A program made the position numbers and the translations under genes. A stretch of DNA of 64,000 nucleotides from Vairimorpha necatrix (lineage: Eukaryota), in assembly GCA_036630325.1 (NCBI GenBank), contig CP142737.1, positions 1 through 64,000 of the forward strand. The letters run 5' to 3'. Positions 2,187 to 61,930 of this stretch are shown here, in pieces. Under the pieces are notes generated by a model that saw only the letters and a program-made list of their open reading frames with translations, ran no database searches and had not been told where the DNA came from. Positions within the stretch are counted from its first letter, which is position 1, and each line of letters begins with the position of its first letter.

Positions 2187-2347
2187 ACGTAAGCTTTTAG
2201 CCCTCAAACCTTCGTGAATTTTTTGTTAAAAAAATTTATTAGTTAAATCAATATGTAACTAAAATAAATAAAAATTGAAAATTTGTTGATAAAATTTATC
2301 TAACTATCTTTATAATTCAATTATTTTTTTTCAGATTAATGATTATA

Positions 2348-2386
2348 TGTTATACATTTATTTAATATGAAAGTTCAACCCTAAAA
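2348..2386 (-). repeat. 3' mini-LTR (39 bp, diverged)
   Basis: tgttatacatttatttaatatgaaagttcaaccctaaaa aligns with 5454-5491 and abuts the PPT. Confidence 0.75.
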
Positions 2387-5300
2387 TCCCCCACCAAACG
2401 GGTAGTCTCACGTTACAAGCTTTTAATTTTCCATTTTTATAATCTTTTAGGTCATAATGTTGTTTCTTAATGTATCTTCAGCTATCAGTCCTTACAATAT
2501 AAGAATTATTCTCAGACTTTCCCCTCCTTTTATCAACATTTGTAAATCTTCCTTTCATACTTTTCATCTATTTACCCTTGTTTTTTCTTATTGCAATTCT
2601 CACAGCCTGATCTACTTCAAATTTTTCTCTATGCCTTAATTTAAAATTACTTGAATACACACCCTTTTTATTGTTTTCAATAAAGACTTATTTTCCTTGT
2701 TCTTTCCATGCTTCAATTGTGTTGAATTAATCGCTGTGTGTAAGAATTATTAGTTCTTACAGCTTGTTCTAGTTTTTCCTCTGGGTTTCCTTCTTTTTCA
2801 TGGATCATCGATTCCCTTATTGTTCAAATACATCGTTCTATTCTTCCATTACTCCTATGAGCTTCTAAACATACTCTCCATTGCATAATTTCGTTTTCTT
2901 TACACCAAGTTACAAACTTCTCACTGAAAATTCTTTGCCGTTATCCGTAATATATTCATCTGGGCATCTATTTTTCTAAAATTTTAGTAATAACATCACA
3001 TCCCTAAATTCCATCTTTGCGTGACATACTCTTGTTCTAAGTAGTCCATCCCTAATAGCACGTATCTTTCTATTTCCCCAATATCCATTACGTCATAAGC
3101 TACTTTTCTAATTTCTTAAATGCCAAAAAAAATTGCCACCCCCGATCGTTTTTCTGTTATTAATGCTACATATTTAACAATTTTTTAGCGATGTGGTTAT
3201 CTGGTCCTTCATACCTGGCCAGTACCATCTTTGTATAATCTTATAATGTGTTCCCTTAACTCCTCGATGATTTAATTCCTCATGAACTCTACGAATTTCT
3301 GTTCTCACTTATTTCTTTGTGTTGTATTTATTAATTTCTCCTGTTGAAAACTTCCAATAGTTTTTACCTTTTCTATTAACCATGCGCTTTATTTCTTTTT
3401 CTTTCATCTGTTTTTGGGCCGTTTCTACTTTCGCTTTTTTACTTTCACTTCGTTTTTTTAAATTGTCTACTATGAGCATATAAATACGTGATCAATTCTC
3501 CTTTTACATATTCAAAAATAAAATCGAACTCTTGTATATATTCTATCCATCTCTTAATTATGTAATTATTGAAAAACGGTTTGTTTCTAATCTCGGCCAG
3601 TGATTAATGATCTGTTATTAAATGAATTTTTCTCCCTCACAAATCTGACTCAAATTTCTTTATTCCGAATAACACTGCCAACATCTCTTTTTTACTAATC
3701 ATATATTTTTTATCTGTTAATGTTATCATTTTTGATGCCTATTGTATCGGAATCCACCTATCTATCTTGTATTCACGCAGAAGTATGGCTCCAATTCCCG
3801 TATCGCATGCATCTGTTCTTACTCTAAATATTTTTTTACTATCTACTATTTTTAATTTTTTCATATCCTTTAAACCCTCTTTGATATCCATAAAAGCTCA
3901 TTCCATATCTTTGAACCATTCCCATTTAACATCTTTTTTTAGTGCTTCTGTAAGACGTGCTGTCCGATAAGCATACTTGGGAATAAAATCTCTAAACCAG
4001 CTTGCCACCCCAAAAATCTCCCAAGCTCTTTCATGTTGTAAACCTTCTGTATTCTAATGTTTCTTGCTTTTTACTTTCGTTTTGTGTAAGGTCTTTTTAG
4101 TTAATTGTTACTCCAAGTAGTTATACTTCTCCTTTATATTGTATCTTTTTTAAGTTTCTTTTAATCCACAAGTGTTAAATTTTCGAATTACTTGTTTTAA
4201 AAAATTTTCTTGTATATTACTATCTCATGCATAAATAATAATATCATCCATGTACACCTCAACACTCTTGCCTCTAAACTTATCTAAAACTCCGTTCATC
4301 ATTCTTTGCATAATATGGGGAGCATTTTTTAATTTTTTACCATGCCATTCCATTAGTAAACTCTACCATTTATCTTAAAAGCTGTCTTATGTTTGTAAGC
4401 TCTCTCAATTATTATATGATTGAATCTTTCCTTTAGGTCTATAACCATAAATACTTTAGAACCTTGCGTTGCTTTAATATGTCTCTAATCAATGGCAATT
4501 CATACGGATCTTTTTATTCCAGTTCATTATAAGCCATCAAATTGCTTCTCAATTGTACTTTACCATTTGGTTTTTCTATGGGCTTTATTAGGCTTTTCCA
4601 TTTGCTCTTTGTCTTTCTGATAATACCTCTACTTTCTAATAAATTAATATACTTTTCTAACTTTTCTCGGTGTTTATAAGGAATATTTTGTTTCTTTTGC
4701 ACTACTTTCACTCATTGTTTTGTTTTAAAAGAACATTTTATCCCTGTTAAGTATTTTCTTTTCTCTTCGTCTTTTCACAATACCTCGAAAATTTTCCTTC
4801 TAATTCTTCATATTTATTAATATTTTTTCTTCTTTTATCTTGGTTTGAATTTTTTACATAAAAACTGTTTCTTGAGTTCTCTCTTTCTACCTCCACTGGT
4901 TGTCAATTTAAAATATTTCCTTAAATATTTTCATTTTACTATTATCACGAATGCCAAAATATTTAACACTTTTATTTTCATTAGTCTCTTTCTGTCTTCT
5001 TTACGCTCCATACAACCTCTAGCTATATGTATAATTCTTCGACATATGAACCAATGTTTTTCTTCTCGTCTTTGATATTGAAAGTTTATACTGGCACTGC
5101 TACAGTCCTAGTCAGCTATTTTTTAAACTGCTTTTTTAATTTTTCTTATATTTCCTCTACCAAATCTTCTAGTTCTCTACACCTTATTTTTTCCTTGTTC
5201 TTATTCTCTTTCTCTTCACAACTAATTTATCAATTTCATATATAATATCATACCAATTTATCATACTAATTAAATTTTTATCAATAATAAAATTTTAAAG

Positions 5301-17880: not shown

Positions 17881-18581
17881 AGCCTATATTTACTTTAAAA
17901 TTTCATATTCTTGGCGAGTAGAAGGGAAGATGAAATATTATACATGAACTCAAAAGAAAGAGAGTTAATTATCCAATTGATATAGGGAATTTCTAACTCT
18001 TAACTATTACCGAATACTTGCGCTGCACTATCTCCGACGTAACCATTGGGATTTGATTTGGTATTAATTTTTTTTTATACAAGCCTCTAATCGCTCATTA
18101 AATCAATAAATATATTAAAATGAAGATTTTAAAAACTCAGTGTAGATTTATCGTTTCAATCTAGTGTCGATATTATATAAAAAAATCATCTATATCTTAG
18201 ATGTGTCTTTCTCTCACACAGAACACTAAAAGCAAACTTATTAAACTTCTTTGTCTTTAATGAAATAATTGAACAGATCTCAATCTTATACTATATCTTG
18301 TTTGTATAAAAACAAACTTCATAAATTTCTACATCAAGAGTGCGATAATTGGCTTTTAGATCCCTATAGATTATACAGCCATGGTATTTTGAAACACGAA
18401 AGAACAAATTAAATGTATTAAAATTCGAATTGTTAATATATTTTAGAAATTAATAATTAATTCAAAACAAGAGATATTTTTCATATTATTTGAGGTCTAT
18501 CAATTTGCCAATTTTATTTTAGTGACGTCTGTATGTCCAACAGCATCTATTTCTACACAGCGAATATAAATTTTAATTTTA

Positions 18582-18652
18582 TTGCCATCGGGAATCGAAC
18601 CTTGGACCTTCGATATCACAAATCAAGGTGCAATTATTCTACCAAGCACACT
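18582..18652 (-). pseudogene. Degenerate tRNA-like sequence (possible His-GTG pseudogene or SINE head)
   Basis: Minus strand has a TGGTAGAAT D-loop-like motif, an anticodon arm TTGAT-TTGTGAT-ATCGA (GTG), a variable loop AGGTC and a B-box GGTTCGATTCC. Acceptor and T stems pair poorly. Confidence 0.45.
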
Positions 18653-19040
18653 TATTTAAAATTTTGTTATCCTTTAAGAAAACCAATTATATTTTCAACT
18701 TCCATTAATTTTTGATTTCTTTCTATGCATAAAGAAACATTTCATATTAGTCATATTGAAAGATCATTAAATTAAATGAATCAAATAATAGAACAATTTA
18801 CAATGTTAGTTTTATGCTTTCTTATATAAAATAAAATTATATAAGATTATCTTGATCCAAATATACCTTTCTAATATATATACATGTTATACTAAAAAAA
18901 TAATATACATTTTACACTGCAAAAACGAGTATATATCCTATATTATATACAAAATACTTTCATATGTGATCGCAAATTTTATGATGTGCTGGGATCTATT
19001 TCAATTTCTCTATTATATCTGGCAATTTTGTTATTCTTAT

Positions 19041-25772: not shown

Positions 25773-27991
25773 AAACTAAATTAGCCGTATTTCTTTCTAA
25801 ATGCATTCTCATTTGAGTTTTAAAAAAATTCCAAATAAAATTTGTCCTGAAATACGTACTTATATTATAAACAATTTCTTATTTAAAGTATCGTTTATAA
25901 TCGGATCAAAACTATAATTATTAACATTTCTAAAAGTAAGATTTAGTGTTAAATGCATAATAATTAAAAAATACTTTTCATCATATGATTGTATTCATTA
26001 ATAATGATATTATATCATTCGTTGCAATATAATTAAATGTTAGATATGTCTATCGTAGAGTTTAAATCTAATTCCTACAGAAAACTATTTGAATTATAAC
26101 AAAATAACGTATATTTTGAGTATCTAGGAAATAGGACCAAGGTAAATTTTGTAGTAAGTCATCTATACAAAGCAGAGTTATAAAAGAATTACAAAAAGTT
26201 CTACAATACTATCCTTCGATAATAAAACTTTAATAAGAATTGGTTCGGTAAGGCGATACTCAAAGAAAATAGAATCTTATGGATTCAAATGTAAGATTTG
26301 TTAGGAACTCTCAGTATACGATTTAAAAGACAAACAGATATAACATATGTAAAATATTTAATCTATTAATATATAAATGTAAATTATATTGACATATCGG
26401 ATCAAATTATTATTTTTATGAGTTTTATAGTCGTAAAGTAATGTATTATTATATTTTCAAATTAATGTATAGTTTTATTATTCCGGTAAACACAATGATT
26501 TTTAGTACATAATTTTTTTACTTTCTATAAAATGTATCTATACAATAATTCGTCATTTTGAAAATTCAAATTCTTAACAAATAAATTTTATTATAATAGA
26601 TAGCCAATTTTTGAGATTTTTTATATTTTGATTCTTTGTATATGCACAGCAACGAAAAAAGAAGGTAAGATGTATATAAATGTAAATTGTATTATCACTT
26701 TATATTTTTAGAAATTTTATTGATAAGAAAATTAATTTGTAAAAAGAATTTTATGGTATTTATATTACATTTTATATTAAGTTTTGCTGGATACATTAAA
26801 TTATCTAATAAAAAGTAGATATCTTAAATATTTATCTTTAGCATTCATTTACCTATCTAAACATACAACCAACCCTCCAAACATTGCCTACGTAAGTATC
26901 TTTTTTTTTTCTTAAACGCCTTCTTAACGAATATTAGAAATTATCAATAAAATGTATATTACACATACTATAAATTAAATTAAAGCACTTCTTTGTTTTC
27001 TACATTACTCTATATTTTAATCAGATATTTTATTGATCTATCTTAAAATGAGTCTTGAATTCATATATTTTTAATATACTGTTCATGTTCACTATGCAAT
27101 ATTCATTATTGTTAGTCCATTACAAATTTTCAATTAACATTAATATATAAATATCTATAATTTATTAAAGAATTGCAGCTTTTATTTTCATATTTGAACT
27201 AGTTTTTTTCTAAAAAATACCACTTACATGTATGGCTTAACGCTATTGAATTTGCGATTTTATGAATATTAAGATACAATATTTTGGATCTAGTATTTTC
27301 TGAACCTGGATCAGGGTGCTTAAAGCCGTGAATACAGATATATATTTTATAGGATTTTGAAAAGCCTAGGATGTGTCAGTCATCATAGTTCAAAAAAATG
27401 GTTCGGTTATATAAGAGGGAGATAAATGTATAGATTAGAATTTTAATTGAACTTTAGATAAGGTTTGTTAAATATGATCGAATTGTCACAAAAAGACAAT
27501 CAATTTTATCTAATTAAACTATATAAATCTTAATTTTACATTTCTAATATTTTTCTTGTTATTTAAATTAAATATATCAATTTCTTTTCTGAGTAACAAT
27601 TTATTTTTGTTTTGTGTTGTAATTAAATTTATAAAAAATGAAATGTTTCTTTTATTATAGATTTTCTTGTTTTATATATAATTTATACAATTATAATGGG
27701 TTTTATATAATATTACCAAATTTTAATCAAATAAATATAATATAATATATAATAGGGTTTTTGTAGATTACATTATAGTTTCTAATTCAAATTTTAAATA
27801 GATAAAATGCACAAGAAGGCGAATTATTAATTAATGTTGTAATAATAATATGGAAATAGTTGTGTGTTAATGTGATATTTATAGAAAACTATTTAAACAA
27901 AAAAAAAATAACATAATTTAACGCTTATTGTTTAAGATAATTGTACGTAAAGGGTATTATTTATAAAATATATATTCTCAACCTTCCGTGC

Positions 27992-28995
27992 TGAATTTTT
28001 TTTTCTTGCAAGTAAGAGGTGGGGAGAAACCTTACATAAAGACCAATGGGATTTGGTTATGATCCTCATTCAACTGGTACTGTGAGATTCTTACTCACTA
28101 AAACTCCCTCCATACAACTTGCCGGTGCAGCAAGCTCCGTCGTACCATTGGACTTTAACTCCAGGAGAACACTTTCCATTTATACCTCAAAGCAAATATA
28201 TTTTACAAGCATAGTTATCTATAACCCGAGGAGAGACATTATCGTACTGACTCAAAGGTCCCTACAATCATCTGTATTGCACACGGCTCCTTATACGACC
28301 ACATCCCCAGCCCGCCGTTTTTATTGGGCTGCGTTGACAATCAGTCTCCCACTAGTTTCGGCCACCGTGTTACAGAATCATGTAGGATATGGTCCACGAG
28401 ACCTTCTATTGCCCTACATCGTCTAGTCTCTTGGTTAGCTCTAGGATCCCACTCTAGAGTGCACCAGCTATGGGCTCCAACTAGGCCGTACCTATTTGAT
28501 ACTTTTATGTATCATTAAGTTACCAAAGGGTGATACTGCTTTTGGGCTTTGAGGTGCGTTATACACTAGATGCTAATTATCTTGTGTCTGGACACACACA
28601 AGTTTCATTGAATCAACTTAATGATTATCGTGGACATTTTCATCATCTGAGTTGTTCCAACTGCATCATAGAAAGTAGTTACAATTTTGGTGCCCCTAGG
28701 AATCGAACCCAGCCATTGCTCAATGGAAGCATAGCATTCTACCACTGTGCTAAGGGCACCTCCCGTTTTGTATATCCGAAGTGAAGTCACTCGTGACGCG
28801 ATTTGAGGTATAAATGAATGTGTTTTCTTGGAGCCAAAGCCTACTGGATACGGCAAAGTTTGCTGCTCCGGCAAGTTTTATGTGGAGGATTTTAGTATGT
28901 AAACTTCACAGTACCAGTGTGATAAGGATCACTTTTTAAATCTCTCTAAATCCTTTTAAAGTTTCTCCTACCTCTTACTTGCATAAAAAAATTCA
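27992..28995. other. ~1-kb GC-richer foldback locus with ~200-bp imperfect terminal inverted arms and a densely base-paired interior (structured ncRNA or non-autonomous element)
   Basis: Arms 27992-28191 and 28802-28995 are complementary. Nested internal stems: CAAATA/TATTTG, CATAGTT/AGCTATG, TAACC/GGTTA, GAGAGAC/GTCTCTT, AAGGTC/GACCTT, CCTACA/TGTAGG, TCTGTA/TACAGA, ACACGG/CCGTGT. Confidence 0.7.
28688..28760 (-). tRNA. tRNA-like module with atypical D and anticodon arms; identity ambiguous (CAT or TCC register)
   Basis: Acceptor GGTGCCC/GGGCACC plus A, A-box TAGCACAGTGG, T arm CTGGG-TTCGATT-CCTAG, 4-bp anticodon stem TGCT/AGCA. No oligo-T terminator follows. Confidence 0.6.
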
Positions 28996-30355
28996 AACAT
29001 AAGTTTGTAATCTGAAACCTATAATATCATTTTTTTTTGGTAGTTATGGATTATGTGAGTTAAGGAATGCAGCTTTATTTTAAAATTTAACATTATGATG
29101 AATTAAATAAAACTAGTAGATTAAAAATGACTTTTATGTTGCATTTATTGCGAACTTTTATTTAAGTAAAATTATTTTGAGTTTTGATACAAAAACAAAA
29201 CTTTTTCTTTGAAAAATAATCCTCAAATAGTAATAATATAACATCTAGAATATATACAATGACTTATAGAAAAATTCATATAAATTAATGTGCTAGGTAT
29301 GATATTTACATGATTTTTGTCTATATAAAATATATATATATATATAGCGTTTCTGATCTATAAACCTACTTTTTAATCGTATCATATATAAACGGATTAA
29401 ATTTTACATAAACACTTACTTGGAAAGCTATTACGAAAAAAACTTATGTAATATTAATGATATTATTAAAAGAAATAACGGATTATAAATTTAAAAAGTT
29501 AAGGTAATTTTAAAGCTCGAAATATATATATTCAATTAAATCGAAACAGTATATTTAATTTACTTATTACTGCTCTTCAACAATTTATTTAGCTACAATG
29601 TTGTTTATTTGTTAAGTTAATGGGTCATTTTACATTATCATCAGATATTTAAACAATATTATTTTGTAATATTTGCGGATTTACAGATTTAAAATTAATA
29701 ATTTTGTTTATATAATTTTTTTTGATAGTAGAATAAGCAAATACGTAACATGGCATCAATATTGCATAAAATTATAAACAACTCACGTGATCAAACAATT
29801 TTTTCACATCTTTGTCAAATACATAATGTATTGCATTGAATTTTTTCGTAATTTCTAGCGTGATAGTAATTTATTTTATTGTATCTGATGTTTTCTTATT
29901 ACTAGTCTCTACATTTAATGTCTAATCGAATTATCAGAATAAAACAAGACTATGTAAGTATTAACAAGAAAAATATAAAATTAACGAGCTTTTAATTATT
30001 TGTTATTTTATAGAAGTCAAATTTGACTAAAATTCACTTTCAATATTGCACAAAAAATTATTTATTTTGACAGTAAAATTGATATTCATAAACATTTAAT
30101 TAAAATTTAAAATTCAGAACTAAAAAATAACATACAGTAGCATATAATTGATGCCTTATGTGCTAAAAAAACTTCTCCCATGATTTTGAATGTTTATAGT
30201 AAGAAAATAGTTCTTAATTTATTTGCTAGTATTTATATTCAACTGTTTTAAAGTATAACATATAAATTATCTTAAAATTTTTTATCAGATGACATTCGGC
30301 TTGAGTTACTTGGCAGTTGTCATTTGGACTAAAAATTCAGTAAATAAATAAACCC

Positions 30356-35352: not shown

Positions 35353-35628
35353 ATGAATATAATCAAATTTTTTGTTGTAATTTGGTTTGTAAAATCAAAT
35401 ATAAATATTTATAACAAAATAAATGAAATTATTCTAAAGCAAATTGAGAATAGAAAGTATACAGTTTTTAACCCAAATAAGAAATATACTTCAATAAGAA
35501 TATCTTGTAGCGAATATAATAAGACCATAGGTTGTTTGATTGTGAATAATATTTTGAATGAAACTATTTCTAACGAATTTTGGGATATATATATATATTG
35601 ATTATGCTAACAAATCCACTTATAATAT
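35353..35628 (+). pseudogene. 5' part of a host gene (signal-peptide-like N-terminus) interrupted by an LTR retrotransposon and frameshifted in an (AT)n run
   Basis: CCCCCTA-ATG start. Removing the element and 4 nt of the AT run at 35585-35598 restores WDIYIDYANKSTYNIIEEIEQFIKK in frame with 39328-41304, aligning with the 61931 paralogue (IDFIINCGNKSLNQIITELEEKIQ). Confidence 0.8.
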
Positions 35629-35737
35629 TGTAGGAAGTGCCACATATGTCAAATATATTGTGTCTGTGTTTTGATATATTTGACATGTTGTTTCTTAAAT
35701 ATTTTATAATAAATAAACCCATGTTTTCATTCCAACA
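35629..35737 (+). repeat. 5' LTR (109 bp)
   Basis: Identical to 39219-39327; contains a hairpin and AAACCC-ATG. Confidence 0.95.
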
Positions 35738-38700
35738 ATTTGGCGAGAACGACAAGAAAGAGTTGATATTTAGAAATGAAGAGGATGATGACCCACAGCA
35801 GTTCGTGGAGGACATTTTAGAGGTGGGGAGGTTGCTGGAGTACAGCGAGGGGAAACTGATGCTCCTGTTCAAAATGTCTCTAAAGGATGAAGCGAGAGAC
35901 TGGATTAATTCACTGCCAGTAGGACTTAGATTTGATAAGCTAATTGAATTATTTAAAGAAAGATTTTTTAGTAAAATGCAGTTAAAAATATGCATTGATA
36001 AACTTTCGGCGTTAGTATACCATGGAGGCTCGATTTTAAATTATTTGGATAAGATGGCGGGACTAGCACGCAAAGGTAATGTCCCGGAGAGTATATTAAT
36101 TGCCTTTGCGTTAAAAGGACTACCCAAGGATTTGGCAAATTTGGTGCTAGTAAATAATAAAGATACCTTATCGTGGAGGTACATTTACAGAGCTCTGAGT
36201 AATATGAAGTCAGCGAATGTCCAAAGATATACAGAAGTGGCTCGAGGAGAATCTAGGGAGGTAGATGCGATAAAAGAAAAGGTCTGGTGGAACAATAATG
36301 AGAAAACAGAAAAAAATGGAAAAATTAAGTGTTTTATTTGCGGGAAAAGGGGCCATATAGTTTCACAATGCAAATTCAATAGCTTCCATAAGAATGTTAG
36401 AGCTGTAGAAAAGGCCACAGAGAAGGAGGAACAAAATGAGGAAAATGATTCTTATAAGTTTATTTTTAACTATTCCGTGTCGAAGTCTAAGGACATTAGA
36501 ACAACACTTAAAGCTGCGTCATTAAGCAATTCAGGAGGAAAATTCAAAGTACTGATTGATACAGGAGCCGATTTAAATCTTATTAGACCAGAACTGTTAC
36601 CGAATAAAACTGTTGTTAATATTTCGAAACAACAGCTTAGAGCAGCAAATGGTTCGAGGATAAAAATTATTGGTGAAACGGTAGTTAAAATTAAAATTGA
36701 TGGGATGATATTTGAGGATAAATTCATTATAACAAGAGATATCACAATCCCATGCATCATAGGACATGGGCTACTCGATAAATACAGAATTAGTTTAAGA
36801 TTTGGGGATAATAGAATGGAAATTGAATCTGGACAAATGGCAAAGGGTAAAGCCATAGGATACCATAAAATCATCACGAAGGATGATAACCCAATATTAT
36901 CACAGTTATACAAGTTGGGTGCTGCAAAAGAGGACATAGCATCGAAAATAATAAAAGAATATCTTAGCTTAGGAATAATAAGACCTAGTGAAAGTTCATG
37001 GAGAAGCCCAATAATTATTGTTCCAAAAAAGAATGGAGACCATAGGCTATGCGTGGATTATAGAAGACTGAATGACGTGACGATTAGGGATGCATATCCA
37101 ATGCCCCGTGTAGAAGAATTCATAAACGCATTAGAAGGTGCTACTTACTTTACCAAATTAGACGCTGAATCTGGCTATCACCAAATAGATATGGCGCCTT
37201 GTGATATTGAGAAGACAGCTTTTGCCTGTAGAGAAGGGTTATTCTAATTTACTAAAATGCCATTTGGGCTTGTTAACGGACCAGCTACATTTCAGCGGGT
37301 GATGAATGATATATTAAGGGAATTTTTGTTTAAGTTTGTTGTAGTATATATGGATGATATACTAATTTATAGTAAAACTGAAGAAGACCATAGGAGAGAT
37401 GTTCAAATGGTATTGGAAAAGCTCAAATCGGTAGGATTGAAACTTAATCAGGAGAAATGCGAATTTAAGAAGACCGAGTTAAGAATTTTAGGTCATGTAA
37501 TATCAAAGGAAGGAATAAGGGTAGATGAAGAGAGAGTGAGGAGTATTCAGAAGCTACCAATCCCTAAAAATAAGAAAAAGCTACAATCATTGTTGGGGTT
37601 GTATAATTACTGTGCAAAATTTATAAAAAACAGTCACAAGATAATTAGCCCATTATTTGATATAATCAGGCTCAAGAATGAGGACGCTGAGAACTTTTGG
37701 AAAAATGTAGAACAAAACGCTAAATATCGTAAGGATATTGAAGAGGTAAAACAGGCCATGAAGAGAACGGCCTTGTTGACTATCCCAAACTTGAAAGATA
37801 AGTTCATTTTGACAACAGATGCATCAAACGAGGGATGTGGCGCCACTTTGGCCCAAGTAATTGGAGGAAAAGAAAAGATTGTTTCTTATTACAGCTCCCT
37901 GCACTCAAAGACGGAAAAGAATTACTCCACGACGGAACAAGAACTATTGGCGGTAATAAAATCCATTCAACATTTCAGAGAATACTTATTATTAGGTAAG
38001 TTTACATTAAAAACTGATCATCAAGCTCTGAAATATTTATTTAAGTCTAGAAACGTCAAAGCTAGGCTGGCTAGATGGTCATTGATTTTACAAGAATATG
38101 ACTTTGATATTGAATATATAACAGGACCATCAAACCATACAGATCACCTGAGCAGAGAATTTAAAAAGGAGGGAGAGAATGTTTTGGAAATTCATTTAGT
38201 ACAAAAGAAAGTTATAAAAAAAGAGAGAACATCGGTATTGTTAAAGTTTTATCATGATTTATTGGGCCACGGATCAAAACAAAACATGAAGTACAATATT
38301 GGTCAAAAATACACCTGGAAGCATATGAACAAAGATATAGAAGACTATGTAGACAACTGTGAAGTTTGTCAAAAGGAAAAACCTCAGAGAAAATTTAAAG
38401 ATATTGTACCAGTGGTAGCAAATAAATTAGGAGAAATCTGGGAGTTAGACATGGTAGGCCCTCTGAAAGAGAGTGAGCAAGGATACAAGTTTTTATTAAC
38501 AATGATAGACCATTTCTCAAAAATCGCAGAGGTAGTGCCGGTTTATACAAAGGATATGAATACGGTTGTTCATTTGATTGATAAACATATAGTCAGGAAG
38601 CATGGTGTACCGAAGGCCATTCTAACTGATAATGGCAAAGAGTTCAAAAATAAAATTTGTGATGAATATGCAAAGGTTAAGAACTTTATCTGGAAATATG

Positions 38701-39218
38701 GTTCCCCCTACAAACCTACGACCACGGGGCTTGTGGAGAGATTTAATAGAACAATGGGTTCAAAGTTAAGGAAAATTACGGAATTTGGGAAATTTGATTG
38801 GGCAAAATGCGTTCCTAAATTGGTCAAGGCCTATATGCAGTCTTACCATAGGGCTATAGGCTGCGCCCCAGTAGAACTTATTACAGGAATGGTGCTTAAT
38901 AAATTGGACTTACAGGAAGGGATTAAGACATCAAAAGAAAAGAAAGAATATCAGGAACAGGCCATTAAAAATTTAGAAGCCTACAGACTTGAGTATAACA
39001 CGGGTGGAAAGAAAAATGGTGAGAGTAAGGAAACCATAAAGGTTGGAGATAGGGTCTGGTACTATTTAATTCTCCCTATAAGAGGAAAACTTGAACCTAA
39101 ATGGGAAGAAAAAGGAGTGGTAGTAGAACAAAAATTTCATTCATTTAAAGTTTTATTGGACAGTGGAAAAACAGTTACGGCAAGCCGAAATCATGTAAAG
39201 CTTTTAAAGGAGGGGTAG
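35721..39218 (+). pseudogene. Gag-Pol polyprotein in a single frame with one in-frame TAA at 37245-37247
   Basis: Zinc knuckle CFICGKRGHIVSQC, protease LIDTGA, RT RLCVDYRRLN and YMDD, RNase H TDAS, integrase HHCC and D,D,E (ELDMV, LTDNG, LVERFN). GLF*FTKMPFGL reads through the stop in frame. Confidence 0.92.
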
Positions 39219-39327
39219 TGTAGGAAGTGCCACATATGTCAAATATATTGTGTCTGTGTTTTGATATATTTGACATGTTGTTTCTTAAATATTTTATAAT
39301 AAATAAACCCATGTTTTCATTCCAACA
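39219..39327 (+). repeat. 3' LTR (109 bp)
   Basis: Identical to the 5' LTR; begins right after the pol stop codon. Confidence 0.95.
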
Positions 39328-41304
39328 AATATCATTGAAGAAATAGAACAATTTATAAAGAAGATTGCATCTACTAAAAACATTGACTCTATTGTATTGT
39401 CATACTCACAATATGAATATAGAGAAAGTAACGGAATTGTAAAAAAAATTATAGAAAAGTTAAATCAAATAAATGATGAAAGAAGAATAAAACAGAAAGG
39501 AGCCGAAATTTACTATGAAAATATATGCGTTCGGGGTTGTTTATTGCACAATATTCTCGAGAAGAAGCATAAGTTCAATTCAAAAAACTTATCTAAGGTG
39601 CAAAACCCAGAACCCACGCTGAGTTACCGCAGAAACGAAGACGATAATAGTTACTATCTCGAATTATGCGTTAAAATAAATAAAATCTGTTATTTGTTTG
39701 AATTCGATATGAACGAACTTGACAATAAAGAACTTAATACTATGGTTAAAATAAATATAGGGAATATGTGTCATTACGATGCAAAAATACTTAAGAATTT
39801 ATTTGAAATTTTCAACGTCAAGGATTTATATCATATTGAGGCAAATGGTGAGATTGGAATATTAGAAATTACACCAAACAAAATCGAAAAGATAATGCCT
39901 AAAAAATTCAAAATAGAGATACACCCAGACTTTATAAACTTCTTTGATGGATATAGAAAAAATTCTGTATATTTAAAAAATGAATCAAACAAGGACGATG
40001 GTGAAAAAAAATTTATAAACAATATTTTTTTTAATGAAATTAAGAAAATATTGGAAAAGATTAATTTTATAGCGAATACAAAAGATTATGAATGTGTTGA
40101 ATTTTTTTACAGATTACTAAAAAATTACAACAAAGTTGAATTTCTTATTTTGAGAATAATGAACAAAGAAAGATCTGCATTAAAAATAATATTTAATTTT
40201 ATTATTAAACATATTTACATCGTAGATGAAGATGAATTGGATTACACAACAGGTGAGATAATATTTAGATCAAACAATGAAGAAGATGTTAAAAACAAAA
40301 TGTTAAAAAACTTATCCTATGAATTGTCAGGGAACCAACTTTCCGAATGTTATTTAATAAAAATTTGCCTACTTTTTGAAGCAGAAGAATTTATTAATAA
40401 AAAAAACATAAACAACGAAATTATTTGGGAATCATTAATAGATATAAATGAATATATACAAGAGAAAAATAATGAAAAGATATCTCGTTCAGATAGAAAT
40501 AGCAGATGTATTAATATCGTAAAAATCATAAAGGAAGTAGAAAATTACCATATCCACAATATTATAAAATATAAAAACGAAGTTTTGAAAAATGTCTGGA
40601 AAATAACGTCAATATTTACAGGATTGGTTAGTTCTAGTTTTGTATACAAAGATACCAAGGAAGATTTTAGAAGAAAGAAAATTTGTGAAAACTTTCAACT
40701 TGATGAAAATGAGATAGAGGAAAAGGCCAATATTATAGAAAATAATCTACAAAAAAATACAGATGAAGATGAAGAATATGAAAAAAAGAGAAAGTTAAAA
40801 GAGCAAGAAACAAAAAAAATAAGAGAAATGTTAAAAAATTCATCATTAGATAATGATTTAAACATAATTAAATTAAATCCCCTGGAAGAAGAACTTAAAG
40901 ATATTTTCGACGAAGAAATTGGTACATATTATGAAAATGAGCAAATAAAAAAAGGGAAAATAATTATCGAAAAAATATTTAATGAATACATAAAAAAAAA
41001 TGAAATACAAGAAGAATCTATAAATGAATATAAAAATGAATTGGAAGATGATTTTTTACAAATTTTGAGAAAGAATATAGAAGTTAGATTAAGAAAACAG
41101 GCCCCGATTGAATTACCTAAAGCTTTTAATAATTTATTTGAAAGTGAAATAAAAACATGTCACGTAGAAAAGGTAAAATTAAGAAAAATTTTTGAAAATG
41201 TTAAAATGATGTTAGATGAAACAATAATTCTAGAATTATTGAACAAGACTGAAGGAATGAAAATGCAAAAATCATTTACTAAAGCTTTAGAGACCTTTAA
41301 ATAA
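39328..41304 (+). pseudogene. 3' part of the interrupted host gene; paralogue of the gene at 61931
   Basis: Frame is open from the TSD onward. Shared blocks with the paralogue: KGAEIYYENIC/KGREIYYENIC, FYRLLK, KICLLFE/KICLLLE, SIFTGL/SLFTGL, INEYKNEL/INEYKEEL. Confidence 0.85.
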
Positions 41305-52152: not shown

Positions 52153-52184
52153 TTCCAATGTAACTAAAAGCAATAATTTTTTAA

Positions 52185-52302
52185 AATTACAGCACCCTGC
52201 TTTTCCGAGCGGCCTCCCATCTCAGTACTCACAAGGCTCTTACTGGCTTAACTTCGGAGAGCTGACGAGTTCCGGTGCTTTACAGTAGATATGGCCGTAA
52301 TT
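52185..52302 (-). rRNA. 5S rRNA (dispersed copy)
   Basis: AATTACGGCCATATC...CTCGTCAGCTCTCCGAAGTTAAGC...AGTACTGAGATGGGAG...GGTGCTGTAATT, ~118 nt, with paired termini and ending in a T4 run. Confidence 0.93.
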
Positions 52303-52578: not shown

Positions 52579-54452
52579 AGTTAATATTGTATTTTTAGAG
52601 TATAGTAGATTTTTTTTCAAAATAGTAATTCATATGTATACAAAAAATCTCTTGAGAGCGAATCCTATCAATTATTTATGGACTTTTATGAGATTGAGCA
52701 ATTGTTATACATAACATAATAAAGTATAACTTAAGAAGCAAATAAACACAATAGTATTGGGTCGGGTACAATATTCCACATAAAAATTCCAGTCATGTCA
52801 TTTTGACCTAATATCACTTTATTTAATTACAACCATATAAATATATATTTGGTTCTATAAATAATAGTTGACTTTTTAGTAATTTACGAACTAGATTCTA
52901 TATTTTCTTTTATACTTTCATGTTCATAAAGACTTTATTTTTTCTACCTGTATATATAAAAGAGGATAAATAACCTTTTAATTTTTTTAAAACAAAATTA
53001 ATGGGGAATTTTGATCATATTAAAAGTAAAAGAAAATATTTAGAAATTATTTTTTTCCCTTTAATAAAAAAAAACTAATTATATTGCAAAGGTGCAATTC
53101 ACATCAATGGTAGTAATGTCCCATTAAGTCCCAATTTCTTCTATTTCATCCCACTCTACGCCATTTTTCTATTTTCATGATAGGTTTCTTGTGTAGTGTA
53201 AAAACTGTTATTACTATCTAACTTTGGCTCTTTATATAATTTCAAGCCAACTTCTAGTCGATTTGTTTATGAAATTACATACGAAACGATTAACACAAAA
53301 AACACATCTTACCATAGAGTTATAAAGATTTTTTATCGCATTGGCTTTCAAAAAAAAACTAATAGAATAAGTTATACATGAAAAATCTTTAGAAAATTCC
53401 TTGAAGTCAGCAAATCGTCGACAAATCAGCTTATTTGTACCATGTACAATATCGAAAATTACAAAGTAGTCTTACATGTAATTTTTTATGATAAATTCCC
53501 AAGGCATGTTTTTTGAATATTTTGCTAGGTTTATTACCTTTTGTATATTTAGTGATGAATAAACTTGCCTTACGTTAACGTTATGTTATAGTCTTTTTAT
53601 TTTTTCAAAATAATTCAATCACTCATTCTATGCCATAAATTTTTGTTAAAAGTGAGGAATTTTTACAAGTAAAAACATGATCATACGTAATCAACAACAG
53701 AGATAGTTAATTTAAAATGTTATACATATAAAAACAGTGCTTTTTTCGTAAGGAAAATGTAATGTTTGTTTCAACTCATTTTAATAAACGTTTACAAATA
53801 GGCGATGGCACGAGTAATATTCAGATTTTTCATGATCATTATGTGAAATATAGTTAAAAGGTGTGAAATAATATCTCAAAACGCGACTTAGATTTAAACA
53901 TATTCTGTTTTTAAATATAAAACTTCATTATCCGATATATACTTTGGATCGTCGAACTAATCTAAGAATTTATAATAAATAAAATAACAATTTCTAGAAG
54001 ATGACTCACAAGGCGGTAAATGTCCATAACCTCTGAATATATCAGTATTAATGTTAAGAATATCTCTCTGGTAATAGAGCAGTTTTGCAAACATACTAAA
54101 AAATCAAGCGAAATAGATCATAGTATGCAGATATATCAGCTGAGTCATTTATCATATGCTATTATAAATAAATACAATATACAAAGTCTTATGAGTACCT
54201 TTAAAGCGATCCTAAGATCTAGATTCAATAAAATCCAGGACCTACATTTTTGCAAATGAGAAGGAAAATTTTAGTTATTAGAAAATTCAAAGCTAGAAAT
54301 ATGTGTTTAATAATCATTTTTATGTCCATTAACTATGCATGATTATTTCATATTTATACACAAAAAGAGTAGCAGTAAATTTAAATGTTATTTTAACTTG
54401 GTGCTATTTGCACTCGATTAAATAATTTTCTATGTTATCGTAATATATAATA

Positions 54453-57400
54453 TGTTATAATCAGTAATAATATTAAACCCCAATTATGTTAAGCACTTAT
54501 ATGGGGGCGATACCTAAAGAAGAGTTCACAAGAGAGGACTGTGGCCAAGTGGTCAGAAAGATGTTACAGGAGTTAGAGCGTATATTGTATGAATTGGATT
54601 TGAGAGATGTGGAGAGAGAGAAATGGAAGAGTGAGCTGTTCAAGTTGGCTTCGATGGATTTAAAAGATTTTATTGTGAGAAATATCAAAAAAGAAGAAAA
54701 TATTGAAGGAATAAGGAAGAAGCTATTGTTAAGGATTAAGGAAGTAGAGGAGGAAGAAAAGATATATGAGGAAATGAGAAAAATTATTTCTAGGACTATA
54801 AATGAAGAAATTAGTAGAGAACAACCAAGACAAAAATCGAAATTACCGAGATGCTTCTATTGTGATAGACAAGGGCATAGGGTGTTTGAATGCAGACTGA
54901 AGATTAATAGAGATAATTATTATAAAAAGAATAACAAGGATAACAGTTGCAAAATGGAAGTATGTAGTGAATCAGAGTCAAGTCAGGAGCGAGATTTTAG
55001 AAGATCAAAAAGAGGACTTAGAGTCAAATTTGAGAAAAATCAAAAAGAATATGCCGTTAAAGAGGAGAGTAAGAGAATCAGATTAAATTTAGATAAGTAT
55101 GCTAAGAGTTTTGGAGAGGTTTTTAAGTTAGGAAAAGAGGAGATAGAATATTGTAAACTGGAAAAATGTAAAATTAATACTGAAGCGGGTAAGAAGGTAT
55201 TTAAAAAGGGACAAATGGTTCCGCAGGCGTTGATAAAAGATACAGAGCTACATCTAGAAGATTTATTAAAAAGGAAAGTGATAAGAGAGTCAAATTCAAG
55301 TTGGAGGAATCCTATAAGGTCAATCAGAAAGCCAAATGGTGAGATAAGACTGGTTAGTAATTTGATGGCATTGAACGATATTGTAGAAAAGGACGAGTAT
55401 AGATTGTCTAACATAAGAGATGTTGTAAGAGCTACACAAGGTGCAAAATACATGACGGTTTTCGACTTAAAAGAGGCCTTCTATAGTATTGAGATAGAGG
55501 AGGAGGATAAACATAAGACGGCGTTTGATTTTAATGGCAAGGTTTATGAATGGAACTCTATGGTTATGGGATATAAGAATAGCCCGCAGATATTGCAGAG
55601 AATTATGGATAGGATTTTTAGAGATATGAAAGGCAAAGGAGTAGAGGTGTATATGGACGATATTGTGTTGTACAGCCGAACGATAGGAGAACACGAGCAA
55701 TTAGTGAAAAGGGTATTAAATAGACTGAAGGAAAACAATATGAAGCTGAATGCAAATAAAGTTCAGTTTTGTCAACGTGAAGTTAAATTATTGGGAGTCA
55801 CTTTAAATGGAGAAGATATAATACCGTCAGAGATAAAGAAAAATGAAGCCCTAGAGTTTCCGATACCAACATGCGTGTCAGATGTAAGAAGATTTTTAGG
55901 AATGACGGGTTGGTTCAGAGATTTTATTAAGAATTACGCTGGATTGACAGTTAGGTTGACAGATAGTTTAAAAGGGAAGAATGATAATTGGAAGTGGACG
56001 GATGATATGAAAAACGAGTTTAATAAATTAAAAGAAGTATTGAAAGGCCAAGGAAAGCTGCGAATAGCAGACTATGATAAAGAATTTTTGTTGAGGACTG
56101 ACGCTAGTAATGTAGGCATGGGCGCAGTACTGTTACAGAAAAATAATCAAGGAGAATGGGTGCCAGTACAGTGGGCGTCTAAGAAGTTTACCGTTACGGA
56201 AGTTAATTATGGTATATCAGAAAAAGAAATGTACGCAGTTTTTTTGGGGCGTTAAAAAGTTTGAATATGAATTAAGAGGTAGGAAATTTAGAATAGAAAC
56301 TGATCATAAAGCGTTGGGCGAAATAAGAAACAAGCCCGACTTTAAGAATGCTAGAATTAATAGATGGGTCGAGAAGATTCAGGAATTTGATTTCGTGATA
56401 GAATATAGAACTCCAGAAAATATGGTCGTAGCCGATGCGCTAAGTAGGGTATATACAAAAGAAAAAGATGCAAAGAAAAAGAGAAATGAAATACGCCGTG
56501 ATAGACAAAAAGAAGGGAAAAGAAATAAGCATGTAAAAATTAAAGAAGGTAAAGAATACTGGGTATTTGATAGTGGTAGAGAAGGCGAGATGCCTTTGGA
56601 ACAAGACAGAGAGAGATTAATAATGGATTGTCATGTCAATTTGAGCCACAGAAGCAGAACAACGGTATATTATGAGTTGAGGAAACAGTATTATTGGCCA
56701 GGAATTAAGGATCAGATCGAAAAGGTCCTTAAGAATTGCGAGACTTGTCAGATTTTTAATAGAAAAACGAGTGGCGGTACTGATTTAGTGAACACGACAA
56801 GATATTTAGAGAAGGTTGGCTTAGATTTAATAGAATTTAGGGATGAGAAAGCGTTTATTGTTTTGGCAGTTGATTACTTTACAAGGAGATTATGGGGCAG
56901 AGTATTGAAGAGCAAGCACGCATCTGGAATTGCCGAATTTATCAAGGATTTGTGTAAACAGGGTAGAAAACCAAAGGAAATCATTACGGATAATGGTAAA
57001 GAGTTTTGCAACGAAAAAGTTACCGAGCTATGTAGAAATTTGGATATTAGTCATAGAAAGGTCAGCGTTGAGTCGCACAGAAGTAATGGAAGAGTAGAAA
57101 GAGTTATTAGAACTGTAAGAGATAGTATTTTAAAGAGCCAAAAAGAGAAATTCGAGAACAAGGTTTATGAAGCTATTGAGAAATATAATTTAAGTTTTCA
57201 TGCTGGTATTAAGTGCACGCCAGTAGAAGCTTTAACCGATAATACAGGAAATGTTAGTATGGAGAATAGTCCAGAGGGAAAGTATGCGCAACAGTTCAAA
57301 AGTTGGTTTAGAGAAAAGTTCAAAAGGAACCAGATAGTTAGGGTTGCCAAGAATGAGAATTTAAAGGGATGTAGTAAGTATAGTAAGGGTCGATTTTTAG

Positions 57401-57595
57401 ACATGGGAAGAGTGATTGAGCTATGTCCAGGGGATTCATATATAGTGAGATTAGAGAATGGAAGGTTGGTGAAAAAAAGGCATTATGATCTTAAAGGTGT
57501 AGGGGATTAAAGTATGTTGAAGGAGACTAACCGTCTGGAGGGGGGATGTTATAATCAGTAATAATATTAAACCCCAATTATGTTAAGCACTTATA
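54453..57595 (+). mobile_element. Compact Ty3/Gypsy LTR retrotransposon (3143 bp) with 49-bp LTRs and no protease
   Basis: Identical direct repeats at 54453-54501 and 57547-57595, TSD TAATA (54448-54452, 57596-57600), PBS TGGGGGC at 54502 (tRNA-Pro-like 3' end), PPT GGAGGGGGGA directly before the 3' LTR. Confidence 0.93.
54486..57510 (+). pseudogene. Gag-RT-RNaseH-integrase polyprotein with one extra T in a T7 run (56239-56245)
   Basis: CFYCDRQGHRVFEC knuckle, RT YMDD, RNase H TDAS, integrase HHCC and D,D,E (GLDLI, ITDNG, RVER). Deleting one T gives EKEMYAVFWGVKKFEYEL and fuses the two ORFs. Confidence 0.9.
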
Positions 57596-60500: not shown

Positions 60501-61930
60501 TTTGCTTCATGTTGAACTACAAGTAATGAAAGAAGACATTTAGAATTATTTTATACTCATCAAAATTTACATTAGAATATCAATGGTGTTTCTAAGACGA
60601 TAATATTTTTCTTTCAACGGTATTTTTTAGATAGTCTTGACAATAATTATATAATCATAATAGTTTATGAAAATTAGAGAATCCGATAGGGACAATATTA
60701 CTAACTTCGTTAAACTATTTATATGAAATACAAAAAAAATTGCGACTACAGGACTATATGTTGTATCATCCAAAATAATTATATTTTCGCAATGCCACGT
60801 ACCAGAGATTATTCTCAACTATGATTTATACAGTTTAATAGTAAGGAATGCGATCAAATTTCCAATGAAGAGATACATACAAAGAATGTGAAGTTTTTTA
60901 TCAATAATTGAAAATATATCATTAATTTTTACAATAAAGCCCAATTAAAAAAGTCAGAAAGAGTTTCTGAGATAAAAAAATACAAACCGAAATTAAAAGT
61001 TTATATTGTTTTTTTTACAAGAAGGTTGGAAAATTTTAGAAAGCTTTATATTTTATTTTTTATTCGACTAAAAATATCTCAATGCATTATTTCATGTATC
61101 GTAGTGTAATACATATTGCTTTTAGACTTTAAAATTATATAATAAATCATTAATATACTTAATAAAAAAACATATATTGTAATTAATTTAAATTAATTAA
61201 AATATACGTTGAAACTATCTAAAATGCATATCTGCATGCCATATTTAACATTTTTTTTTTGTGTTATACCTCCTTTAGATCTCCACTTGCTCTAGTTCCC
61301 TAGTTTATCCTATCAGAGGAGTATTTGTTTATTAAATTGCTGGTGCGCGCTGGAGATATTTTAAATATGAGAAACAGTTGCAGAAAGTGTCTTGTCAAAT
61401 CTCTATTACTATATAGCTCGTAATTGCTACTGTCAGCAGTCAATTACTTTATTACTCTTTCATTGGACCTGTCAATATAAATTGTACTTTTAAGAAGGAC
61501 TAAATATAAGTATACACCTGTACTGTACTCTTTTAAATAAAATAGCCCTTTTGTGGAAACAGAATCATTACATCAACTCAATTATTGAATAAATGAATTT
61601 TAAAATATTTAATAAATAAAATTATTGAATTGTTTCGTTTGATTTATTAAATATATTATTTATTTTCTTTATGTACGTAATAAAACTTTTAAAATGTTCA
61701 GAGAATTTTTAGTATCATTTCAAGCATAAAATTATAAATAACTCGTATAACGTTAGTAAAAAACTTAGAAAATATTATTATATTAAAATATGACATTTTT
61801 AAAATCACAACTGTTTTTATTTGCGATTACAAGTAACAAAAACAATTGTAAAATTTTTTTATAAAAAATAAAGTATTCCTTATTTAAGTTTAATTAAGTT
61901 TATTATAAAAACCTATATTATTTGACCGTT

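Follow-up and report, generated by a model that had tools for sequence, protein, structure and literature searches.

Composition and layout of the island

Vairimorpha necatrix is a microsporidian of the Nosema/Vairimorpha clade. The window analysed here is the first 64,000 nucleotides of its contig CP142737.1, and an island of about 1 kb stands out within it at 27992-28995. GC content rises to 0.44-0.45 in the island, against about 0.17-0.25 around it in 500-nt bins, which bears out the GC-richer island described in an earlier reading made from the sequence only. The island contains a unit on the minus strand, called L, and a partial copy on the plus strand, called R, which share a tail module and so place homologous sequence in opposite orientation at the two ends. 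GC is 0.43 in L, 0.38 in R and 0.21-0.23 in the 2-kb flanks. No Pfam family was matched by the four open frames of the island (128, 97, 94 and 90 aa); no coding capacity was found in L, and its body is non-coding. Elsewhere in the window, a search for longer homologues of an ORF at 61898 gave no match. The features are as follows, in the order of their coordinates.

17900-18660, minus strand: L2, a strongly decayed, AT-enriched full-length copy, recognized by colinear local alignment
27981-27995, no strand assigned: left copy of the putative 12-15-bp TSD of L, abutting the poly-T run
27996-28757, minus strand: unit L, a SINE-like retroposon (head, body, tail and A9), delimited by contig boundaries and by the tRNA-like head at its 5' end
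27996-28004, minus strand: A9 tail of L (T9 on the plus strand), read from the sequence
28005-28191, minus strand: tail module of L, the left arm, which aligns with the reverse complement of 28802-28984
28192-28687, minus strand: body of L, about 500 nt, with the "nested stems" and short hairpins of the earlier reading; covered by many related contigs
28688-28760, minus strand: degenerate tRNA-like head, called by ARAGORN as tRNA-Met (CAT) and by a weak Rfam tRNA hit
28699-28709, minus strand: B box, an exact motif match
28742-28752, minus strand: A box, an exact motif match
28758-28772, no strand assigned: right copy of the putative TSD of L, an in-register repeat
28773-28991, plus strand: copy R, the right arm, partial (5'-truncated or interrupted), sharing the tail module with L
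58383-58573, plus strand: T3, a diverged tail-module copy ending A-rich, found by BLAST and alignment; the presence of more of the unit upstream is uncertain

Pairing is confined to the arms

The arms (27992-28191 and 28802-28995) align over 204 columns, of which 151 match, 39 mismatch and 14 contain a gap, giving an arm-to-arm identity of 74% and leaving 26% of the stem columns mismatched or gapped. The stretch 27996-28991 folds far better than its shuffles, with z of -10.90 on the plus strand and -11.15 on the minus strand and none of 20 shuffles equalling it on either; the minimum free energy on the minus strand, -374.6 kcal/mol, is below that on the plus strand, -360.3 kcal/mol. The sequence-only reading was therefore right that the island's ends pair over some 200 nt (fold z about -11), and the six short hairpins that it named can be read in the sequence. 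The ends themselves are symmetric, with TGAA and a T-run at one and an A-run and TTCA at the other.

The interior is another matter. A densely structured interior had been proposed, with nested stems at 28193-28498, but this stretch folds no better than shuffles (z -1.24 on the plus strand, equalled by 11 of 100 shuffles, and z -0.79 on the minus strand, equalled by 17 of 100). The longer interior 28192-28801 gives z of -1.01 (2 of 20 shuffles equal it) and -0.94 (4 of 20) on the plus and minus strands, respectively. The earlier reading had itself named interior energy against shuffles as the comparison on which it could fail, and the comparison went against it. Unit L folded alone on the minus strand does somewhat better than its shuffles (z -2.04, 0 of 20).

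The mismatches between the arms had been described as mostly G-U compatible on the plus strand. There is no such bias: 12 of the 39 are G-U on the plus strand, 13 are G-U on the minus strand (A-C on the plus strand) and 14 are transversion-type. L departs from the majority base of the related contigs at seven assessable arm positions. R retains that base at five of the seven (28046, 28047, 28140, 28157 and 28158), so that the left-arm mismatches have the look of decay private to L and not of compensation; at 28057 neither arm has the majority base, and at 28059 both arms depart from it. The pairing is a DNA-level inverted repeat, of equal strength on both strands and confined to the arms. Selection for RNA structure, as had been supposed for the locus, is not supported in view of strand-symmetric pairing, an interior equal to shuffles, the absence of a G-U bias and apparent decay without compensation. 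Folding the interior alone, comparing the two strands and checking for private decay are simple tests for rods of this type.

A unit with a tRNA-like head and an A-rich tail

Unit L is about 765 nt long, with a 5' end that is ambiguous by 3 nt (28757-28760), and its tail module is about 190 nt, as against about 210 nt in relatives. The repeated unit opens at its very 5' end with the tRNA-like head. ARAGORN draws it with a 7-bp acceptor stem, a 3-bp D stem, a 4-bp anticodon stem and a 5-bp T stem, and its Rfam tRNA score is 25.6 bits (E 0.013), under the gathering score of 29. Both internal boxes are exact matches to the generally known consensus motifs, for which the chance expectation in the window is 0.14 (A box) and 0.00 (B box). 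Inside the tail, a T4 run on the minus strand at 28103 could end Pol III transcription early.

At the gathering level, Rfam matched only 5S rRNA, which lies elsewhere in the window. With the threshold relaxed to E<=10 over 27700-29300, six matches were returned, all below gathering, namely the tRNA (E 0.013) and five weaker ones. The Infernal/Rfam check suggested by the sequence-only reading thus returned no ribozyme or other family at E<=10 beyond the tRNA hit and these weaker sub-gathering matches.

The unit shares with SINEs a tRNA-like 5' head with boxes, an A-rich variable 3' end and many dispersed copies that lack coding capacity. The A-rich ends are A9 in L, A7 in R (28985-28991) and an A-rich run in T3, and a longer T-run is seen in contigs of one related data set (X2). 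SINEs are usually some 100-600 nt long. Short length (<about 600 nt) is a SINE feature that L does not have, and L is called SINE-like rather than a typical SINE because its about 765 nt exceeds the usual range.

Related contigs and the boundaries of the unit

The evidence for a family comes from other organisms' contigs that align at >=80% identity to 27700-29300, as given in summary tables, in four runs termed X1 to X4; all runs with matches had small shares (0.05-0.13). The region carries 252 contigs in X1, 377 in X2, 16 in X3 and 1 in X4, and depth in X1, X2 and X3 is concentrated on 27970-28833. Two of the organisms contribute hundreds of 80-99% pieces of L and almost none of R. Over the bins of 28834-28995 depth is 1.87, 1.65 and 0 in X1 and 0, 0 and 6.17 in X2, and the homologous left arm is covered; the uncovered stretch 28834-29103 carries weight only jointly with that covered arm and proves nothing alone. 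The left arm is about 82-85% identical to contigs of X1 (records 1-2) and about 93% identical to one of X3 (record 16), compared with 74% to its own partner arm.

One boundary of the unit is marked by contigs of X1, X2 and X3 that stop at 27996. Loose ends of 14 X2 contigs before this position have a consensus of 15 T (agreement 0.71), compared with T9 in the window. The other boundary is based on single contigs, one in X2 that exits at 28773 and one in X3 that exits at 28747, both into unrelated AT-rich sequence. In addition, two X1 contigs depart from the left flank at 27998 and continue as AT-rich sequence. These could represent a site empty of both copies, and this would be compatible with the insertion of one composite unit as well.

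The tail module is found with more than one upstream partner. Nine X1 loose ends behind 28191 carry a second upstream part, and R does likewise: in the 30 nt upstream in R (28772-28801), 25 of 30 match the consensus of the X1 loose ends, as read by eye. In one L-type contig of X3 the shared part runs on for a further 22 nt. One tail behind differing upstream parts is what SINE families with a common LINE-derived tail show.

A flanking direct repeat and further copies in the window

The sequence-only reading saw no convincing TSD. This is correct for the whole island, where no flanking direct repeat was found at six end definitions except the self-complementary AATT that symmetric ends predict. 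It probably does not hold for the sub-unit 27996-28757, which is flanked by an in-register direct repeat in which 27981-27995 and 28758-28772 are identical at 11 of 15 positions. Of 5000 shuffles 16 equalled this match, in a test that was post hoc and made on one copy; in a looser, unregistered direct-repeat test 136 of 1000 shuffles were as good, which is not significant. Three of the 15 positions of the putative TSD overlap the tRNA-like acceptor, and the left copy may double as a 5' remnant of R, presumably the older copy. A TSD was not found for R.

Only 12 nt separate the 5' ends of R and L, a proximity for which independent insertions need nesting or coincidence. TGAA stands at the primed end of each of the two copies.

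Two further copies were recognized in the window. L2 aligns over unit positions 31-781 with a score of 225; 300 block shuffles average 131 (sd 11.2) and reach at most 171, which gives z 8.4. The L2 score is the best among the 406 windows scanned, and L2 has an exact B box at 18591-18601. No matching inverted repeat was found around L2. T3 has the second-best alignment score of the 406 windows (209, z 6.2 against block shuffles) and a BLAST match at 58535-58568 that is 86% identical over 36 nt (E 3e-5).

Two probable retroposon copies in head-to-head arrangement

Two LINE-type (poly-A) retroposon copies, placed head to head, probably make up the island, with the rod as a by-product rather than a selected RNA structure. 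Both copies end in the same tail, and for this reason an imperfect inverted repeat of 200 nt with a spacing of about 600 nt folds as a rod. In the proposed sequence of events, L would have been transcribed from its internal Pol III promoter, and the endonuclease and reverse transcriptase of a putative partner LINE would have placed a copy in the genome by target-primed reverse transcription, presumably through recognition of the common tail or the A-run. L would have inserted in opposite orientation beside the 5' end of a partial and presumably older R, or about 15 nt inside it, with an apparent duplication of 12-15 bp of the target. A preference for nicking after TGAA is suggested by the presence of this motif at the primed end of both copies.

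Remnants of a LINE endonuclease or reverse transcriptase were looked for in the window and not found: none of 83 frames matched at E<=0.01, and 13 further frames gave nothing significant. The 83 were drawn from 140 stop-to-stop frames of >=55 aa, and the frames outside these scans mostly overlap two gypsy elements. The only reverse transcriptase hits in the window are Ty3/gypsy.

Parts of the earlier interpretation survive in this account. An RNA-derived element and the involvement of a SINE are both supported, and selection for RNA structure is not. A foldback element that had captured a SINE came closest among the options offered, but what is favoured here is a SINE-like unit beside or inside an older inverted partial copy, not capture by a foldback.

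Alternative explanations

The whole 1-kb island could instead be one mobile unit, either a foldback or long-TIR DNA transposon or a retroposed composite, with TIRs of ~200-230 nt around a tRNA-derived module. The geometry lends this some appeal: the arms reach both ends of the island, the ends are symmetric, the R arm begins about 12 nt from the tRNA-like 5' end, and in related contigs the arm homology, judged by eye, may extend 20 nt further inward. The two X1 contigs that leave the left flank at 27998 might mark a site empty of the whole island. The empty bins over R are also compatible with arms in other copies, since contigs from a right arm would align to the better-preserved left arm. 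This explanation is nevertheless unlikely. The whole island has only the self-complementary AATT at its six end definitions and the putative in-register TSD encloses only L; around L2 an inverted partner is missing; one X2 and one X3 contig exit at the tRNA-like 5' end into AT-rich DNA; and the length of the poly-T varies at the boundary. The arms are less alike (74%) than L is to contigs of other organisms (82-93%). The Nosema MITEs are described with much shorter termini, their TIRs spanning 5-34 bp and their TSDs 2-10 bp (PMC4405373).

Alternatively, the inverted pair might act as RNA, either as a read-through hairpin diced to siRNAs against the SINE family or as a structured lncRNA gene. 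Both strands give a hairpin of high thermodynamic stability (z about -11), L alone on the minus strand folds somewhat better than its 20 shuffles, and the clade possesses siRNA machinery, given that a Dicer-like and an Argonaute protein are annotated in V. necatrix (PMC10759460). Such a function is improbable nonetheless. The interior is no better than shuffles, G-U mismatches are shared evenly between the strands (12 vs 13), the 26% of stem columns that are mismatched or gapped reflect private decay and not compensation, and no Rfam family was matched.

An endogenised viroid-like or retrozyme-like circular RNA element, to which only the rod-like fold of the whole island points, is extremely improbable, as no hammerhead, twister, HDV-like or other ribozyme was matched at E<=10 over 27700-29300 on either strand, the rod results from two diverged copies that form an inverted repeat in the DNA, and the unit carries a tRNA-like head and an A-tail.

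Other types of element were considered and set aside. Helitrons have TC...CTRR termini; these are absent here, and the T-run varies in length. Non-autonomous Helitrons have been reported in Nosema (PMC4038834). An LTR or solo LTR does not fit ends that vary and bear an A-tail, and twin priming is dismissed because both arms share the same 3' end and A-run. A 21-nt stretch of the best-conserved part was not found in a literature search; in metagenomes, two contigs of ~47% GC share 24 nt and nothing further with the island, and the match was taken as chance.

Significance and comparison with known systems

Most probably, the island is an unremarkable SINE-like insertion, nested in or adjacent to another copy. 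A more ambitious interpretation, and an unlikely one, is that it samples an uncharacterised, unusually long (about 0.77 kb) tRNA-headed SINE family of the Nosema/Vairimorpha clade, the GC content of which could point to recent acquisition from a foreign source, perhaps an arthropod host, and head-to-head pairs of which could feed Dicer and Argonaute with hairpin RNA. The main value of the analysis lies in the correction that it provides, that opposite-oriented, diverged copies of one retroposon tail can yield a striking 1-kb "rod"; the present understanding of SINE biology is left unchanged. Transposon surveys of microsporidia that rely on protein searches miss non-coding retroposons. In the portion of the literature on microsporidian repeats drawn on here, SINEs are represented solely by a RepeatMasker count (0.18% of the N. 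bombycis genome; PMC3614468). A defined tRNA-headed family would aid the annotation of "unknown" repeats in the Nosema clade, the discovery of the partner LINE and the dating of insertions.

The MITEs described in Nosema in 2015 (PMC4405373) likewise come from this clade and are short, non-coding and inverted at their ends, and their AT content is high. The island differs from them in having "TIRs" of about 200 nt that are 74% alike, in having no TSD around the whole and in being GC-richer than the genome.

A further comparison is with hairpin RNA loci. Pairs of transposons in opposite orientation are sources of endogenous siRNAs in animals, plants and fungi. The island resembles these loci in having two copies of one repeat family head to head, so that any read-through transcript would form a long, imperfect hairpin. 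It differs in that its arms are heavily mismatched.

The repeat table of Nosema bombycis lists 28,669 bp of SINE, or 0.18% of the genome (Pan et al. 2013, PMC3614468). This is the same clade and the same class of repeat as L, and the part of that paper used here gives the tally without a family description.

The closest parallel lies with the tRNA-derived SINEs, such as the lepidopteran PxSE1-3 and HaSE1-2, a likeness drawn from structure. L is unlike these elements in its length of about 765 nt and its microsporidian host, and its Pol III transcription is predicted. L has in common with tRNA-derived SINEs the tRNA-related head that carries the A and B boxes, followed by a body that does not code for protein and by a tail also seen in another element family; the A-run, the apparent direct repeat at its flanks and the many dispersed, diverged copies are further points of agreement.

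The island as an inverted repeat

The island at 27992–28995 is richer in GC than the surrounding DNA, reaching 0.44–0.45 in 500-nt bins (0.43 in L, its SINE-like left unit, versus 0.21–0.23 in the flanks). Its ends pair over about 200 nt, as the sequence-only reading had proposed: when 27992–28191 is set against the reverse complement of 28802–28995, 151 of the 204 alignment columns match, 39 mismatch and 14 have gaps. The fold of 27996–28991 has z-scores of −10.90 (+ strand) and −11.15 (− strand), and on each strand 0 of 20 shuffles are as good.

Everything beyond the arms is ordinary in folding. The nested stems noted earlier at 28193–28498 give z −1.24 on the + strand, where 11 of 100 shuffles are as good, and −0.79 on the − strand (17 of 100), and 28192–28801 gives −1.01 (+, 2 of 20 shuffles as good) and −0.94 (−, 4 of 20). 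The short hairpins listed for the island are present in the sequence, but they gain nothing over chance. The mismatches had also been described as mostly G-U compatible on the + strand. The 39 arm mismatches divide into 12 that are G-U on the + strand, 13 that are G-U on the − strand and 14 of transversion type, and the minimum free energy is lower on the − strand (−374.6 versus −360.3 kcal/mol on +). Because there is no + strand G-U bias and the − strand folds more stably, the pairing belongs to the DNA as an inverted repeat rather than to a single RNA strand.

Anatomy of the two copies

The unit L (27996–28757/60) reads on the − strand from a tRNA-like head through a body and tail to an A-run. 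R (28773–28991), an inverted partial copy on the + strand, shares the tail module and forms the right arm of the hairpin.

Features of the unit L and the partial copy R
28760–28688, − strand: tRNA-like cloverleaf, Met (CAT), with 7-bp acceptor, 3-bp D, 4-bp anticodon and 5-bp T stems (ARAGORN)
28742–28752, − strand: A box, exact motif match (chance expectation in the window 0.14)
28699–28709, − strand: B box, exact motif match (chance expectation in the window 0.00)
About 190 nt after the body, − strand: left arm, the tail of L, followed by A9
27996–28004, − strand: A9 of L (T9 on the + strand), from the sequence
28802–28984, + strand: right arm, the same tail in R, from sequence comparison with L
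28985–28991, + strand: A7 end of R, from the sequence

The A and B box motifs are those of the Pol III promoter consensus. The Rfam tRNA model gives the head 25.6 bits, below the gathering score of 29, and the head is thus a degenerate derivative of a tRNA, not a tRNA gene. No protein family was matched in the roughly 500 nt downstream of the head on the − strand. About 30 nt lying 5′ of the R tail (28772–28801) are absent from L.

Related sequences in other organisms

Five coded sequencing runs share small fractions of the window's words, and none contains the window's own sequence. Contigs from four of these runs of other organisms, X1–X4, were aligned to 27700–29300 at an identity of at least 80% and taken from summary tables only; 252, 377, 16 and 1 contigs match, respectively. 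Contig depth, which is not equal to copy number, comes as summed word depth to 121–763 (X1) and about 5,900–106,000 (X2) over 27970–28833, and is practically nil over 28834–28995 (1.87, 1.65 and 0 in X1; 0, 0 and 6.17 in X2). From this profile we conclude only that the sequence belongs to a family of repeats in the organisms coded A and B.

The left family boundary is 27996, before which 14 loose ends in X2 have 15 consecutive T as their consensus; the A-tails of X2 thus exceed that of the window in length. On the right, an X2 contig (n=1) departs at 28773 and an X3 contig (n=1) at 28747, running 194 and 161 letters into unrelated AT-rich sequence; these single contigs in two runs place the apparent right boundary of L at its tRNA-like 5′ end. 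Contigs that span head and body (X2 record 15, 28562–28760; X3 record 22, 28408–28714; X4, 28592–28704) show the tRNA-like head to be part of the repeated unit and not a neighbouring gene. X1 loose ends at 28678, 28318 and 28562, along with many X2 skips, suggest mosaic subfamilies.

Nine X1 loose ends lie behind 28191; read by eye, their consensus agrees with the reverse complement of 28772–28801 at 25 of 30 positions. The tail therefore also exists with R-type upstream sequence. One L-type X3 contig carries 22 additional letters after 28183, which extend the part common to R. At 28184–28191 the window L has lost these roughly 22 nt, which lie between the two units of an 8-nt direct repeat, a pattern that resembles deletion by slippage.

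Identity of the left arm to the X1 contigs of records 1 and 2 is about 82–85%, and outside the 22-nt gap it reaches about 93% with one X3 contig (record 16); with its partner right arm it is only 74%. At seven arm positions the contig majority is unlike L and the L–R alignment is unambiguous. R keeps the majority base at five of them (28046, 28047, 28140, 28157 and 28158); neither arm has it at 28057, and both depart at 28059. The mismatches at these positions thus appear to be private changes in L, not compensated ones. R itself must lie far from the contig consensus, as tail contigs align to L, not to R.

Other copies in the window

Local alignment of the unit to 406 overlapping 900-nt windows on both strands, with the island left out, gave two outliers, and the family is therefore dispersed in the window's genome too.

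Further copies of the unit
17900–18660, − strand: L2, a decayed copy colinear with unit positions 31–781; local alignment score 225
Ending at 58573, + strand: T3, a diverged tail copy; score 209, z 6.2; only the last ~190 nt (tail and A-rich end) convincing

Block shuffles of L2 have a mean score of 131 (sd 11.2, maximum 171 in 300), which gives it z 8.4. A second exact B box in the window (18591–18601) lies in L2, and the strong AT enrichment of this copy marks it as old. A search around L2 found no inverted tail copy; L2 indicates that the full-length unit exists without the hairpin.

Origin of the arrangement

L is probably a SINE-like retroposon that inserted head to head beside, or inside, the older partial copy R. 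The promoter would lie in its tRNA-derived head, and its tail and A-run would serve a LINE reverse transcriptase. R would be an older partial copy of an element with the same tail; L would have been inserted in the opposite orientation by target-primed reverse transcription, next to the R 5′ end or about 15 nt inside it. Nesting of L in R fits the GC-rich 16-nt stub (27980–27995) between AT-rich DNA and L, the close 5′ ends, and the TGAA found at the primed end of both copies. Domain and frame scans found no partner LINE in the window. Table 1 of PMC4202319 gives 4–15 non-LTR retrotransposon families per Nosema species, and a passage of PMC3614468 gives 'LINE Dong-R4 1.04%' for N. bombycis; such families in Nosema make a partner LINE plausible in the clade.

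The earlier view that there is no convincing target-site duplication (TSD) is borne out for the island as a whole: at six end definitions no direct repeat abuts its ends except self-complementary AATT, which symmetric ends predict. It does not extend to L alone, where 27981–27995, abutting the T-run, and 28758–28772, from the tRNA-like 5′ end, are identical at 11 of 15 positions. Three of the 15 fall within the acceptor stem, as expected of 5′ microhomology. In a post hoc test with the left end fixed, seven right starts and lengths of 8–16, 16 of 5000 shuffles were as good; with every offset allowed, an earlier test did not reach significance (136 of 1000). A putative TSD flanking L thus has moderate support. 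For R, no target duplication turned up.

A single mobile unit of the foldback or long-TIR type would suit the two X1 contigs that depart from the left flank at 27998. Such an element is unlikely, however, given the missing outer TSD, the single arm of L2, the termination of two contigs at the tRNA-like head, the variable length of the T-run and the putative TSD around L alone. The arrangement might in turn act as a source of hairpin RNA or siRNA, which would be an effect of it and not a different origin. For this role speak only the fold and the Dicer and Argonaute noted for V. necatrix in a passage of PMC10759460; we regard it as slightly less likely still. A viroid-like or retrozyme-like origin, for which only the rod shape speaks, is highly improbable.

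The rest of the window

The window is AT-rich, with 0.26 GC overall and about 0.20–0.23 in most 2-kb bins.

Other features of the window
35637–39218, + strand: Ty3/gypsy-type retroelement with gag, protease, RT, RNase H and integrase domains
54486–57510, + strand: second Ty3/gypsy-type retroelement with RT, RNase H and integrase domains; no gag seen
52184–52302, − strand: complete 5S rRNA gene (Rfam 92.3 bits, E 1.3e-18)

The first gypsy element (35626–41301, +) holds a gag–protease–RT frame, an RT–RNaseH–integrase frame and a third frame of 665 aa (39307–41301) without a Pfam match. The starts of the first and third frames carry a 113-nt direct repeat (99%), at 35626 and 39216, which is unusual for LTR elements. 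The second pol (54452–57596, +) lies between the two copies, at 54452 and 57546, of a perfect 51-nt direct repeat. Named relatives that best match the gypsy pol come from Nosema granulosis, N. bombycis, Pancytospora, Enteropsectra and V. necatrix. The 5S rRNA gene stands alone between repeats and is the sole Rfam gathering-level match in 64 kb.

A long, K/N/I-rich ORF (61898–64000, +) runs past the window end and matches no Pfam family; among the candidates scored, only two uncharacterised V. necatrix proteins resemble it, at 57% and 47% identity, which suggests a paralogous family specific to the clade. Judged by the relatives of this ORF and of the gypsy pol, the organism is probably a microsporidian from the Nosema/Vairimorpha clade. 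Positions 1–4000 (0.46 GC in the first 2 kb and 0.32 in the next, about 0.22 elsewhere) have no Rfam match and do not resemble the island; their open frames gave no Pfam match, and this stretch may be another repeat. The AT-rich left flank (27808–27969) has look-alike contigs with shared differences in X1 and X2, and X2 depth is locally high at 27889 (5064 from 4 contigs); the island may lie inside another repeat, or X1 and X2 may hold close relatives of the organism. Positions 28641–28664 match two ~47% GC metagenome contigs (L001 and L002, 2001–2024) exactly over 24 nt, probably by chance; these contigs share nothing else with the window.

Comparison with known elements

The word SINE is absent from the main text of PMC4202319 and PMC4405373, and from the main text and six supplementary text files of PMC7313128. 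Microsporidia sp. MB is reported to have zero SINEs (PMC11585130), and in PMC13702014 SINE is only a RepeatMasker category. A passage of PMC3614468 tallies 28,669 bp (0.18%) of SINEs in N. bombycis and describes no family there. Among the papers found on the subject, no title or abstract describes a microsporidian SINE family. The L family, set here against published text, may already be in Repbase or Dfam.

The island is unlike the Nosema MITEs described in PMC4405373, which have TIRs of 5–34 bp and TSDs of 2–10 bp. L resembles tRNA-derived SINEs in its head, its tail, its dispersal and its non-coding character. At about 765 nt, however, it is beyond the usual SINE length, and it is therefore called SINE-like.
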